From: Carcharhinus amblyrhynchos
Lineage: Eukaryota
Length of the DNA stretch: 64,000 nucleotides
Direction of reading: 5' to 3'
Assembly: GCA_965287045.1 (NCBI GenBank)
Contig: OZ336879.1
Span: 49,786,001-49,850,000, forward strand
In this document: piece by piece, positions 1-43,621 of the stretch
How positions within the stretch are numbered: position 1 is the first letter of the stretch
Layout of the letters: each line of letters opens with the position of its first letter
Position numbers and translations under genes: made by a program
Notes under the pieces: generated by a model
Told to the model about the DNA's origin: nothing
What the model saw: the letters and a program-made list of their open reading frames with translations, nothing else
Databases searched by the model: none

Positions 1-51
1 ACCGCTTTTTTCCTGTACTTCCAGTTCTCGGGGCTTGTTAGAGTGTAGTTT

Positions 52-112
52 ACTTCCGTACCGGAAGTTAGGCCAGGGGATTGTCATTAAGGGGGAGCAG
101 GGGGTATAAAAA
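52..112 (+). promoter_or_regulatory. Candidate Pol II promoter: inverted pair of ETS sites plus TATA box
   Basis: ACTTCCG-TAC-CGGAAGT perfect inverted repeat at 52-68; TATAAAAA at 105-112. Confidence 0.5.
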
Positions 113-205
113 TAGGGGTAGCAGCATAGAGCGGGCAACGGAGTGAGTGGGAACAGAGTGAGGAGGGCTTTGGCTCGCTGGGCTTAGGAGAGAGCAGGCT
201 TAGAG

Positions 206-214
206 AAGGTGAGT
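206..214 (+). other. Consensus 5' splice donor upstream of ORF1
   Basis: AAG|GTGAGT with GT at 209-210. Confidence 0.5.
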
Positions 215-254
215 GACAGATTTCTACCTTTGGGAGCTTACAGGAGGTTGGGAC

Positions 255-1148
255 ATGGCAGGGAATATAGGGAGGAATGTAAGTTGTGTCAGGTGCCACA
301 TGTGGGAGTTCCTGGTGGTGTCACGTGTCCCCAAGGTACACATCTGCAGTAAATGTTTGGAACTGCAGCGCTTGAGGGCCCGGGTCAGGCAACTCGAGGG
401 CCGGCTAGAAGATGCATCTCTAGTCAGGGAGAATGAGGAGATAATGGCTGGGAACCATGAGAAGGAGGAGGTCTCGAGGGCTGAAGAGAAGGGAGGATGG
501 ACGACTGTGAGGAGGGGAAAGAGGACGAAGAAGAGCAGTCAGGGTCCCCCAGCCTCCCCAAAGGCCCCCCAAGGTTCGTTGACAGGGGCACAGAAAGATA
601 GGCAGGAGGGGGAGACTAACTTAGAGGGACAGAAGGGGGCCGGTAAGGTGATAGTGGTAGGGGACGGGAGGGTCCGAGGTATCGATAGGAGGTTCTGTGG
701 ACAGAGGCGTGACTCCAGGATGGTGGTCTGCCTCCCTGGAGCAGGGGTAAAGGACATAACGGACAGGGTAGAAGGAATTTTGAAAGGGGAGGGGGCACAG
801 GCTGAGGTCATAGTACATGTAGGGGAGGGGGACATAGGAAGGAGCAGTAGGGTAGAGGTACGTAGGCAATTTAGGGAGCTGGGGGCCAAACTAAAGAGTA
901 GGACCTCCAGGGTGGCACTCTCTGGGTTGCTGCCTGGTACAAGCAGGGCAAAGAATGAAGAGATCATGCAGCTGAATGCATGGTTGAGGGATTGGTGTAG
1001 GGTAGAGGGCTTTACTTTTGTGGATCACTGGGAGGTGTTTAGGAGAGAAGGGCAATTGTACAGGAAGGGTGGGGAGAATTTGAACGGGAGGGGAACTAAT
1101 GTCTTAGCGGGGAGGTTAGCTAGGGTGTTTACGAAGGGTTTAAACTAA
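255..1148 (+). CDS. CR1 ORF1 protein: N-terminal zinc finger and leucine zipper plus SGNH/GDSL esterase-like domain
   Basis: CxxC-x16-CxxC (CVRC...CSKC) then LQRLRARVRQLEGRL coiled coil, WTTVRR motif, and SGNH-like blocks VVGD, LPGA, VHVG. First ATG is at 255 (ACATGG); the ORF track start at 213 is a GTG. Confidence 0.92.
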   Translation: MAGNIGRNVSCVRCHMWEFLVVSRVPKVHICSKCLELQRLRARVRQLEGRLEDASLVRENEEIMAGNHEKEEVSRAEEKGGWTTVRRGKRTKKSSQGPPASPKAPQGSLTGAQKDRQEGETNLEGQKGAGKVIVVGDGRVRGIDRRFCGQRRDSRMVVCLPGAGVKDITDRVEGILKGEGAQAEVIVHVGEGDIGRSSRVEVRRQFRELGAKLKSRTSRVALSGLLPGTSRAKNEEIMQLNAWLRDWCRVEGFTFVDHWEVFRREGQLYRKGGENLNGRGTNVLAGRLARVFTKGLN

Positions 1149-1177
1149 TATGGAGGGGGGGTGGGGAGGTGGCTGGG
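1136..1177 (+). other. Candidate -1 ribosomal frameshift signal
   Basis: In-frame X_XXY_YYZ heptamers G_GGT_TTA (1136-1142) and T_TTA_AAC (1139-1145) just before the ORF1 stop. The -1 frame is the ORF2 frame. G-tracts at 1152-1177. Confidence 0.55.
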
Positions 1178-4027
1178 AGAGAGTCGGGTGAAAGGAAAAG
1201 TATCAGGGAGAAGGAGGTTCCGAGGGACACTTGTGGGTTGAACTGTGTCTGTTTCAATGCTAGGAGTGTGACAGGGAAAATGGATGAGCTTAGGGCCTTG
1301 ATGTGTGTGAGGCAGTTAGATGTGGTGGCTGTAACAGAGACATGGTTAAGGGAAGGGCAGGACTGGCAGCTGAATGTTCCTGGGTACAAGTGTTTTAGGT
1401 GTGACAGAAGAGGGTTGAAGAGAGGTGGAGGGGTGGCACTGTTGGTAAAGGAAAGCATCGCAGTAGTGCAGAGGGAGGACAATATGGAAGAGATAGGGAT
1501 TGAGTCGCTGTGGGTGGAGTTGAGGAATAAAAAGGGAGAGATTACATTGCTAGGGGTGTACTATAGGCCACCCAACAGCCCAAGGTCAGTGGAGGAAGGT
1601 ATTTGCAGGGGCATTTTGGATAGGTGCAGGAAGAATAGGGTGGTTGTAGTGGGTGACTTTAATCTTCCTGGAGTGAATTGGAGGGGGCCTAGAGCTGGGG
1701 GTATGGAGGGAGAGGAGTTTGTGAAATGTGTTTTGGAAGGGTCTCTAGAGCAGTATGTAACTAGTCCGACTAGGGGAGAGGCTATACTGGATTTAGTGTT
1801 GGGTAATGAGCCGGGGCAGGTGGGAGAGGTAGAGGTAGGTGAACATGTGGCTAATAGTGACCACAAGTCCGTCTACTTTAGGATAAAAATGGAAAGGGAC
1901 GAGTGCCAGCCGAACGGGAGTGTGCTGAACTGGGGAAAGGCGAGCTATAGCAGGATTAGGAGGGAGCTGCAGGACACTGATTGGGAGGGACTGTTAGCTG
2001 GCAAGTCCACGGTTGGCAAGTGGGAGGCTTTTAAAGGCAAAATGAAATGGTTGCAGGGGAGGTATGTTCCGGTTAAGAGGAAGGATGGGAAAGGTAGCAT
2101 TAGAGAGCCGTGGATTACAGGGGGTATCGAAGACTTGGTCAGGAAGAAGAGGGAGGCATATGTTAGGTCGAAACGACTGGGTACAGAGAGTGTGCTGGAG
2201 GAATATAGAGAGAGTAGGAGGGAGCTAAAAAGGGGAATTAGAAGGGAGGAGAGAGGGCATGAAATGGCTTTGGCTGGTAGGATTAAGGAGAATCCAAAGG
2301 CATTTTATTCCTATATTAGGAGCAAGAGAGTAGTTAGAGGGAAAATTGGTCCTCTTAGGGACAAAAGTGGGGAGTTATGTATTGAGTCGGAGGGAATGGG
2401 GGAGCTCCTGAATGAATACTTTGCGTCGGTATTCACAAAGGAGAGGGGTTCGGAATCGTGCGGTCTGTTAGAGGGAGCTGAGGATCAGCTGCAGGAGATA
2501 TCTATTACGAGGGAGGAAGTGCTAGGGCTTTTAGGTAGCGTAAGGACGGATAAAGCTCCGGGGCCTGATGGTATTTATCCCAGGCTGCTTAGGGAGGTGA
2601 AAGATGAAATTGCTGGGCCTCTGGCGCAAATCTTTGTCTCTTCTTTGGACACAGGTGAGGTCCCAGAAGACTGGAGGGTGGCAAATGTGGTACCGCTGTT
2701 CAAAAAAGGTAGTAGGGATAACCCTGGGAATTATAGGCCGGTGAGTTTGACATCGGTGGTAGGGAAATTAATGGAAAAAGTACTTAGGGGTAGGATGTAT
2801 GAGCATTTGGAGCGTTGCGGTCTGATTGGGGATACGCAACATGGCTTTGTTAGAGGGAGGTCTTGCCTTACGAATCTGGTGGAATTCTTTGAGGAGGTGA
2901 CAAAAACAGTTGACGATGGGCAAGCCGTTGATGTCATCTATATGGATTTCAGTAAGGCGTTTGACAAAGTCCCTCATGGTAGGCTGGTAGAAAAGGTTAA
3001 GGCGCATGGGATACGAGGCCAGGTAGCTAGGTGGATTGAGAACTGGCTGGGCAATAGGAGACAGAGGGTAGTTGTGGAGGGGACTTTGTCCAGCTGGAGG
3101 CCAGTGACCAGTGATGTGCCGCAGGGCTCGGTACTGGGACCTCTCCTCTTTGTAGTCTACATAAATGACTTGGAAGAGAGCGTAGGTGGTGTGATCAGCA
3201 AGTTTGCTGATGACACCAAGATGGCAGGGTTGGTGGGTACTGAAGTGGATTGTCAGGTGATACAACAGGATATAGATAGGTTGGTGCATTGGGCAGATAG
3301 GTGGCAGATGGCATTTAATCCTGACAAATGCGAGGTGATGCATTTTGGAAGGAATAATATAGAGAGGAGCTATGTGATTAAAGGTAGACAAATTAGAAGT
3401 ATAGAAACACAGAGGGACCTGGGAGTGCAGGTTCACAAATCCATAAAGGTTGTGACACAAGTGGAGAATGTTGTCAGGAAGGCTTATGGAATGCTAGCCT
3501 TTATAGGAAGAGGTATAGAGTTTAAAAGCTGCCGTCTAATGCTTCAGTTGTATAGAACGTTGGTTAGACCGCATTTGGAGTACTGCGTCCAGTTCTGGTC
3601 ACCTTACTACCGGAAGGACGTGGAGGCTCTGGAAAGGGTGCAGAGGAGGTTTACCAGGATGTTGCCTGGCATGGAGGGGTTGGGTTACGAGGAAAGGTTG
3701 GAGAAACTGGGACTGTTCTCTTTGGAAAGACGGAGATTGAGGGGTGACATGATAGAGGTATATAAGATACTGAAGGGAATAGACAGGGTCAATAGTGAGA
3801 GACTGCTCCCTAGATTGGTTACGAATACAAGAGGACATGATTTAAGGGTGAGGGGGGAGAGGTATAATTTGGATATGAGAGGAAGGTTCTTTACGCAGAG
3901 AGCTGTGGGGGTATGGAACACGCTACCAAGTGGGGTGGTGGAGGTGGGAACGTTGGACTCGTTTAAGGTTCAGTTAGATAGGCACATGAGTGAAACGAGG
4001 ATGGAGGGTTATGGTAGGGGTTATTGA
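1169..4027 (+). CDS. CR1 ORF2 protein: apurinic-like endonuclease plus reverse transcriptase
   Basis: Motifs FNARS, VTETW, GGGVA, GVYYRPP, GDFN, LDLV, SDH (EN); KAPGPDG, YRPVSLTS, DFSKAFD, PQGSVLGP, FADD at 3203-3214 (RT); C-terminal TRGH. The frame is open from 1124 and the start codon is uncertain. One suspicious substitution, SGVPQG to SDVPQG, at 3113-3115. Confidence 0.97.
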   Translation: MAGRESGERKSIREKEVPRDTCGLNCVCFNARSVTGKMDELRALMCVRQLDVVAVTETWLREGQDWQLNVPGYKCFRCDRRGLKRGGGVALLVKESIAVVQREDNMEEIGIESLWVELRNKKGEITLLGVYYRPPNSPRSVEEGICRGILDRCRKNRVVVVGDFNLPGVNWRGPRAGGMEGEEFVKCVLEGSLEQYVTSPTRGEAILDLVLGNEPGQVGEVEVGEHVANSDHKSVYFRIKMERDECQPNGSVLNWGKASYSRIRRELQDTDWEGLLAGKSTVGKWEAFKGKMKWLQGRYVPVKRKDGKGSIREPWITGGIEDLVRKKREAYVRSKRLGTESVLEEYRESRRELKRGIRREERGHEMALAGRIKENPKAFYSYIRSKRVVRGKIGPLRDKSGELCIESEGMGELLNEYFASVFTKERGSESCGLLEGAEDQLQEISITREEVLGLLGSVRTDKAPGPDGIYPRLLREVKDEIAGPLAQIFVSSLDTGEVPEDWRVANVVPLFKKGSRDNPGNYRPVSLTSVVGKLMEKVLRGRMYEHLERCGLIGDTQHGFVRGRSCLTNLVEFFEEVTKTVDDGQAVDVIYMDFSKAFDKVPHGRLVEKVKAHGIRGQVARWIENWLGNRRQRVVVEGTLSSWRPVTSDVPQGSVLGPLLFVVYINDLEESVGGVISKFADDTKMAGLVGTEVDCQVIQQDIDRLVHWADRWQMAFNPDKCEVMHFGRNNIERSYVIKGRQIRSIETQRDLGVQVHKSIKVVTQVENVVRKAYGMLAFIGRGIEFKSCRLMLQLYRTLVRPHLEYCVQFWSPYYRKDVEALERVQRRFTRMLPGMEGLGYEERLEKLGLFSLERRRLRGDMIEVYKILKGIDRVNSERLLPRLVTNTRGHDLRVRGERYNLDMRGRFFTQRAVGVWNTLPSGVVEVGTLDSFKVQLDRHMSETRMEGYGRGY

Positions 4028-4070
4028 ATAAGGGTTAGAACCTCGGGAGACACCGGAAAGGCAGGCTTGT

Positions 4071-4101
4071 GATTAACGTTTTTGTCTTTTCACTCCGCAG
4101 G
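4071..4101 (+). other. Consensus 3' splice acceptor downstream of ORF2
   Basis: Branch-like GATTAAC (A at 4076), pyrimidine tract TTTTTGTCTTTTCACTCC, CAG|G at 4098-4101. Confidence 0.55.
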
Positions 4102-4229
4102 TGGAGGTCCACCTCGTTGTCAAACGAGGGGCATGCACACGGTGGGTTGTGCGTGGGCTGCTCCTGGAGGTTCCGGGAGTGGCCTAGTACTTCGTGTCGG
4201 TGTGTGTGCTTGATCCTGGACTGGTAGAC

Positions 4230-4410
4230 GGGCGCCGCAACAGCTCGGTGACTAGCACTGCTGGCTGTGCAGATACATGGATTTGGGCCTGTGTCTGTGG
4301 GAGTTTGTGCATTCTCCCTGTGGTTGCGTGGGTTTCCTCCGGGCGCTCCAGTTTCCTCCCACACCCCAAAGATGTGCTCTTAGGCTGATTGGTTTTACCA
4401 AATTGACACT
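4230..4410 (+). mobile_element. V-SINE (HE1-like) degenerate tRNA head and V-domain embedded in the LINE 3' UTR
   Basis: GGGCGCCGC...GACTAGCACTGCTG head remnant, then GGAGTTTGTGCATTCTCCCTGTGGTTGCGTGGGTTTCCTCCGGGCGCTCCAGTTTCCTCCCACA, matching free SINE copies at 7851, 23741 and 62125. Confidence 0.85.
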
Positions 4411-4844
4411 ATTCTCCCCTGAATCTGGTTAAGTCAGGGGTTCTATTTGTAGATACGCAGGGTAGAATAGGTGTAGGGTGATGCGGCGGCGCGGGCTTGT
4501 TGGGCCGAAGGGCCTGTTTCCCGTGCTGGGTTGTTCTTTGTTCTTTGTACTAAGTAGTAAACTCAGAACAGAGATGAAAGTGAGGAGGAGAACAAGAAGC
4601 AGAAGTAGAAGACAATGAACAAAAACATTAGTGGAGTCAGAGATGGAGAAAAATGTAAAATAAGAACTGAATAAAACAAGAGTGAAAGAGAAAAGAGTTT
4701 GGGAAAGAGTTGTAAAGATGGAGGAGACAGGCTTTTACTTTTTCAGATGTACTAAAGGCCAGAGGAGTGAGAGACTGAGAAAAACTGGGGGAGTAAGTGG
4801 AATCAGGATATTGAATTTGATGATCAGCCATGATACCTTGTGGC

Positions 4845-43583: not shown

Positions 43584-43621
<38 letters not shown>

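Follow-up and report, generated by a model that had tools for sequence, protein, structure and literature searches.

A splice acceptor conserved behind ORF2 of a shark CR1-type LINE, rare ORF-less spliced copies, and the possibility of a built-in brake

LINEs are generally treated as intronless, and the known spliced L1 copies use sites inside the 5' UTR or ORF1. An element at the start of a window of 64,000 nt from Carcharhinus amblyrhynchos raises the question of whether the whole coding region of a LINE can lie within a single intron and, if so, what such an intron might do. The first-pass annotation of this locus had pointed to a donor, AAG/GTGAGT (the slash marks the splice junction; GT at 209-210), and to an acceptor behind ORF2 with a branch-like sequence, a pyrimidine tract and CAG/G at 4100. 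All these signals are present in the sequence, as is the purine-rich interval described between them (64% purine over 215-4027).

Positions 1-4548 of the window are a non-LTR retrotransposon, a young CR1-type LINE, all of whose features lie on the plus strand; the CR1 name is given from anatomy. The 5' end of the element is located 64 nt upstream of window position 1, beyond the view of the first-pass annotation. ORF1 (255..1148, ATG at 255) encodes 297 aa of the SGNH/GDSL esterase type, with matches to Pfam OSK and Lipase_GDSL_2 and to the PDB entry 4c1b ('ORF1-encoded protein'; E 4.5e-18). The open frame of ORF2 (1124..4027, 967 aa from stop to stop, TGA at 4025-4027) encodes an endonuclease and a reverse transcriptase, matching Exo_endo_phos (AP endonuclease) and RVT_1 (reverse transcriptase). 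This frame is open across the ORF1 stop (1124-1282), and its earliest ATG (1280) falls within the endonuclease match, so that translation of ORF2 likely starts at a non-AUG codon or is coupled to that of ORF1. The CR1-type tail (4491..4548), a stem region followed by TTCTTTG repeats, is the 3' end common to all copies. An AP endonuclease/reverse transcriptase ORF2, an esterase ORF1, a tandem-repeat 3' end without poly(A) and frequent 5' truncation are all features of the CR1 group.

The genome harbors ~3,000 close copies of the window LINE (3,107 candidates; 2,963 exact copies of the acceptor 18-mer), and both frames are open in 13 of the 39 near-full-length copies of the young family. The remainder of the window (4549-64000) contains pieces of CR1 families that are more distant, along with short tandem repeats and, at 43585, a run of 35 G. 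Elsewhere, a full-length copy (L044/L074; G000:C1:110,998,900-110,999,100) is preceded by ~100 nt of 18S-rRNA-like sequence, which we take to be the 18S rRNA 5' end; this arrangement is possibly an rRNA-LINE chimera generated by template switching. Old copies are found at a regular spacing of 19-75 kb at G000:C1:5.33-5.51 Mb, C17:54.03-54.07 Mb and C22:43.76-44.03 Mb, which suggests tandem segmental duplications.

The sequence ahead of ORF1 belongs to a promoter repeat. In other copies, monomers of ~200 nt are arrayed in tandem; a monomer contains ETS-like motifs and a TATA box, with an initiator-like start ~30 nt beyond, and the 5' starts are clustered, with 51 of 61 copies beginning within 7 nt of one point, ~30 nt past the TATA box. 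The motifs and the clustered starts suggest that the monomer functions as a promoter. Every monomer opens with an exon of ~40 nt and then a donor, D0; of the 32 monomers scored, 29 have GTGAGT at D0. The promoter motifs sit 3' of D0 and hence inside the intron. For the window copy, the first exon and D0 lie 64 to 24 nt upstream of the window's first base (GT of D0 at G000:C10:49785977), and the monomer body occupies 1..135, inside the large intron, with ETS-like motifs (CTTCCG/CCGGAAGT, 53-68) and TATAAAA (105-111). Within 5-25, the window copy has CCAG where most copies have CCGG, with loss of an ETS-like motif; this change makes the most pyrimidine-rich acceptor-like site of the element, 47 nt past D0.

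Direct traces of splicing across the coding region are present in the genome. Twelve copies (11 with two mismatches allowed, plus L204) have the D0 first exon joined base-exactly to the acceptor at 4071..4100. The first one recognized, L155, begins with the end of the D0 exon joined to the start of the last exon; targeted probes gave 4 copies, and 11 once two mismatches were allowed. Eight of the 12 are strong, with 16-46 nt of the first exon: L264 and L267 are complete, running from the initiator through the entire first exon, the last exon and the tail, and six others retain 16-29 nt. In the weaker ones (L204, L265, L266 and L268), the first exon is represented by only ~8-15 nt that include mismatches. 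Duplications of the target site, 5-7 nt long, were recognized by eye around L258, L259, L261 and L264, of which a script recovered only L261. The tail motif was found in all 11 fossil rows obtained with two mismatches allowed, L260 stopping short of the repeats. In group B, the exon end is followed by GTGAGT in 16 of 18 relatives and the remaining 2 are spliced, while group C has 1 spliced copy among 66 short-exon rows (of 82). D0 is separated from the acceptor by 4.1-4.3 kb in uninterrupted unspliced copies. Both ORFs thus lie within a usable intron, and an ORF-less spliced RNA has been retroposed. Whole-ORF splicing, as proposed by the first-pass annotation, is in all likelihood borne out, with the correction that the fossils use D0, 24 nt upstream of the window, rather than the donor at 209.

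The fossils occupy dispersed positions in the family tree, which means repeated origins and no amplification. In an exon-2 tree of 125 last-exon sequences, in which the label of L102 is erroneous, L266 was filtered out and only 12 of the 114 young rows are included, the 12 rows labelled as spliced need 12 changes, at least 7 of them forced by well-supported branches, and 0 of 200 bootstrap trees group the spliced copies. Their placement indicates that the fossils are independent products of successive masters. As in the SpIREs of human L1, the deletion ends exactly at GT/AG with a branch and a tract, the copies show a tail, variable 5' truncation and target-site duplication, and they originated repeatedly and independently. 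The marks of an amplifying SINE are absent, as the promoter is in the intron, the B box is decayed and the copies form no clade. A microhomology of 4 nt (G/GTG) is present at the junction. In five other internal deletions the ends are private and do not fit GT-AG, which makes splicing much the better reading of the recurrent junction; that splicing occurred and left dead-end copies is very probable. No clear case of host-exon trapping followed by retroposition was found among the 30 of 49 loci examined. In the most distant family, at 76% identity, there was no spliced copy among 6 non-intron starts, and the first exon of that family was not found.

The acceptor comprises GATTAAC (4071-4077) with a branch-like TTAAC, a pyrimidine tract at ~4079-4097 and CAG/G with its AG at 4099-4100. 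With 16 pyrimidines in 20 nt, the tract ranks second among YAG sites (503 AG sites in total), and at least 17 pyrimidines occur in only 6 of 500 shuffles, a rough bound because the bar is one above the site's own 16. Conservation of the acceptor is stronger evidence than these shuffle scores. Of 154 copies extending from ORF2 into the last exon, 145 have the pattern intact. The 154 fall into five sequence groups with mean identities of 97, 90, 86, 80 and 76%, the last of which is one copy; the exceptions are accounted for by deletions, point changes and failures of the pattern to match. The branch-like TNA, the tract and YAG/G are kept although the upstream sequence and the first bases of the exon turn over, and substitutions in the tract remain mostly pyrimidine. 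The spacer from the stop to the AG ranges from 73 to 168 nt across subfamilies, with the acceptor kept. In more distant CR1 families examined at the same loci, the tail follows 27-66 nt after ORF2 without such an acceptor in nearly all rows with the tail motif found. As these families mostly have no acceptor and a short spacer, the long 3' UTR is a lineage-specific gain.

Downstream of the acceptor, the last exon starts with a long predicted RNA hairpin (4129..4211; z -4.9 and -3.2), in which 98% of cells are paired and a two-sided change is seen in only 4 of 46 pairs; it matched no Rfam family (one weak hit, E 1.8). A captured SINE follows at 4230..4405, with a decayed tRNA-like head, whose B box is missing by eye, and a central domain that may be of the V-SINE/HE1 type. 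This domain is 75-85% like an abundant tRNA-headed SINE of the same genome, and the captured SINE is suggestive of a shark or ray. No long-range pairing between the 5' UTR and the 3' UTR was found. For the young subfamily, the idea that 5' ends are in excess at the acceptor, as from a cap or an internal promoter, was considered and rejected, truncations being even over nearby positions. Four young truncated copies (L104, L105, L106 and L109) have GAG as their first bases, immediately ahead of the exon start, 3 of the 4 after an apparent 3-4 nt duplication; they possibly carry an extra untemplated G.

The frequency of spliced copies has changed over time. The fossils are rare, with 7 among 1,945 exact older exon starts, or ~0.4% of older copies, and every one of them belongs to older groups, 72-84% identical to the last exon of the window. 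None of the 2,963 young exon starts is spliced (p = 0.0015 against the older ones), and counting by first exon gives 0 spliced against 333 unspliced first exons in the young subfamily vs. 3 of 84 in the older ones (p = 0.008); these counts are pattern matches that include tandem monomers and duplicated loci and are not fully independent events. The young subfamily retains an intact acceptor even though it has no fossils. Its pyrimidine tract falls in a predicted stem (4055..4091), the predicted unpaired fraction of the tract being 0.4 in young and 0.6-0.7 in older elements; this stem is a prediction only, not stronger than shuffles (z -0.56). Folding is also context-dependent, the young tract being more paired in both contexts and the CAG in one only. 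Pairing of the tract is thus a possible cause of the absence of young fossils, as a weakly supported lead. As for the window copy, its own transcript would lack D0, since D0 is upstream of its only promoter, and its subfamily is without spliced copies, which tells against the earlier proposal that this one locus makes both a LINE mRNA and a SINE-like RNA.

Transcript data have little bearing on the matter. The 11 presumed-RNA data sets cover only 0.24-0.33 of words. No donor-acceptor joint was found among the 15 of 43 joints listed for the contigs of runs X1, X2, X4 and X6, and the contigs of runs X1, X4, X6 and X7 have zero joints on L095, which possesses both donors and the acceptor; neither result is evidence either way, contigs dropping rare forms. 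A rise in depth of ~6- to 37-fold past the acceptor was set aside as a sign of splicing, since divergence between subfamilies confounds it, as does, in X1, the insertion of a truncated copy into a host 3' UTR. At L101 (G000:C11:18,633,703), run X1 carries a truncated copy that is absent from this genome; the reading frame before this site apparently resembles a UDP-glucuronosyltransferase C-terminus.

The reading that we favor over its rivals is that the acceptor serves the element to attenuate itself. That this lineage carries, behind ORF2, an acceptor through which its RNA is at times spliced across both genes as a built-in brake is in our judgment an even call, and the braking function taken by itself falls a shade below even. 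A master copy with at least two promoter repeats would start its RNA at the initiator of a repeat, as the clustered 5' ends suggest, and the unspliced RNA would be the productive mRNA. Joining of the cap-proximal D0 to the acceptor would remove ~4.1 kb, comprising ORF1, ORF2 and the promoter for later generations. The product, ~490 nt long, would keep the tail and, as it codes for nothing, would be copied in trans by the proteins of another RNA. Because the promoter lies within the intron, this product is likely a dead end, and the promoterless spliced copies did not amplify. Splicing in germ-line cells would have produced the fossils, and the acceptor might persist as a regulated off-route, with splicing in cells where transposition is wasted and retention of the intron in the germ line.

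Tissue-specific splicing and a benefit to the element are suppositions of this reading. A single AG change would abolish this mRNA-destroying site, yet the site persists even where fossils have ceased. That a non-coding acceptor is kept through a long ladder of subfamilies though its use destroys the mRNA points to selection on the transposon for splice-site function. The most complete form of the proposal holds that the whole coding region and promoter lie in one conserved intron forming a regulated off-switch, spliced in the soma and retained in the germ line, with germ-line leakage tightened in the youngest subfamilies and a route opened to ORF-less bipartite LINE derivatives; we put it forward only tentatively and with some doubt.

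The alternative that survives best takes the acceptor as a processing signal, which would define the last exon and aid the unspliced mRNA in its 3'-end formation or export, while the cap-proximal donor would recruit U1 and full splicing would be a rare leak. A terminal 3' splice site is coupled to 3'-end formation, and the scarcity of fossils among older copies and their absence among young ones, with the acceptor still intact in the latter, fit such a role. Human L1 likewise retains a rarely used donor, according to the SpIRE study (Larson et al. 2018, PMC5860796). On the other hand, the other CR1 families of this genome, with their short distance from ORF2 to the end and mostly without acceptor, imply that CR1 in general needs none, and splice sites alone gave a reporter no protection from HUSH silencing (PMC8770142). 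We consider this explanation unlikely, albeit a serious one; evasion of HUSH by means of splice sites is disfavored by the same study (PMC8770142).

It is improbable that the acceptor was acquired along with the SINE-bearing 3' UTR and has since been kept as a relic, by descent or some overlapping constraint, splicing being an accident. The 3' UTR is a lineage-specific capture and the downstream hairpin is conserved too, which would suit a relic, but the branch, the tract and YAG/G persist in the 76% family, where neighboring sequence is unalignable, despite a spacer change of 95 nt, and the pyrimidine bias of changes in the tract also argues for retention of the site itself.

Most improbable among the readings that involve splicing is the original one, by which the donor at 209 (D1; 206..214), downstream of the last promoter, is joined to the acceptor and the SINE-like product founds new families. 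D1 is the sole 9/9 consensus match among 356 GT sites; the match by itself is not beyond chance, since a perfect donor also appears in 103 of 500 local shuffles. It would be the first donor of transcripts from the last promoter, at which only 4 of 55 aligned 5'-complete copies start, so that few fossils of this donor are expected anyway. No copy joins D1 to the acceptor, in 2,963 young or in 1,945 older exon starts. A probe for the purine-rich exon end ahead of the exon start gave 0 matches against the 2,963 total, and a looser one gave 9 rows, 8 of them truncations with unrelated flanks and 1 a chance match. In the older subfamilies, the D1 exon end precedes 0 of the 49 non-intron starts among the 1,945, L193 showing a lone, ambiguous 8-nt resemblance, and all 6 matches of a donor-side search are mutated donors. 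The conservation across the family that the first-pass annotation had called for is seen for the acceptor and not for D1, which is lost in several subfamilies: among the first 100 of 305 copies in the list, 28 lack its GT through at least two different changes, and copies without D1 retain the acceptor. As the existing spliced copies lack a promoter, form no clade and never amplified, they lend no support to a source of new SINEs, and this reading is largely refuted at the DNA level. In the oldest subfamily (L348-L357), the interval from D1 to the ORF1 ATG contains another pyrimidine tract, plus a CAG immediately 5' of ORF1, possibly a 5' UTR acceptor reduced in younger copies; 0 of 18 first exons are joined to this CAG. 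Finally, it is hardly credible that template jumping or recombination at the microhomology of the junction generated the short copies by deletion, a process proposed for the CR1-derived SIDE Persaeus (PMC6740152), as the identical base-exact GT-AG join recurs across subfamilies with different exon sequences and insertion sites, and the five other deletions never recur.

If the acceptor indeed is a brake, it raises the question of whether LINEs limit themselves. An acceptor present on thousands of copies may also trap host transcripts, and other ORF-less bipartite elements may likewise end at splice sites. Whole-ORF splicing in a CR1 was not reported in the literature searched, which was mostly without subscription papers, supplements and Repbase notes. 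In retroviruses, which have genome-length and spliced RNAs, and in the P-element and gypsy, control of splicing sets activity. The choice between retained and spliced RNA is alike in the shark element, but its spliced form is non-coding and inactive.

The closest known system is that of the human L1 SpIREs, in which spliced LINE RNA has been retroposed using acceptors in the 5' UTR or ORF1, as described by Larson et al. (2018, PMC5860796). The shark copies resemble them in the single cap-proximal donor, the loss of the promoter, a share of ~2% or fewer of copies, their dead-end fate and shifts in use between subfamilies. They differ in that the acceptor is of a CR1-type element and lies after ORF2, overlaps no coding sequence, removes both ORFs and makes mobility wholly dependent on trans action. 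ORF-less bipartite non-autonomous LINEs of the RTE, Ingi, Vingi and R2 types (Kojima 2018, PMC5786205) and Persaeus, derived from an insect CR1 (PMC6740152), have the parental 5' end joined to the 3' end, no ORFs and a retained tail. Internal deletion is the origin given for both, and the string 'splic' does not occur in either paper. Such elements amplify as families, whereas the shark copies join at splice sites, are made afresh and show no amplification. The introns of TART are in its antisense RNA, according to PMC1636488. HE1, a V-SINE, has HER1 as its LINE partner in sharks and rays, as stated in PMC4824008 and PMC3747384. The last exon described here is like it in having a tRNA-like head, a central domain, putatively a V domain, and a CR1-type tail; here, in the reverse of a SINE borrowing a LINE tail, a SINE with a decayed head resides inside the 3' UTR of a LINE.
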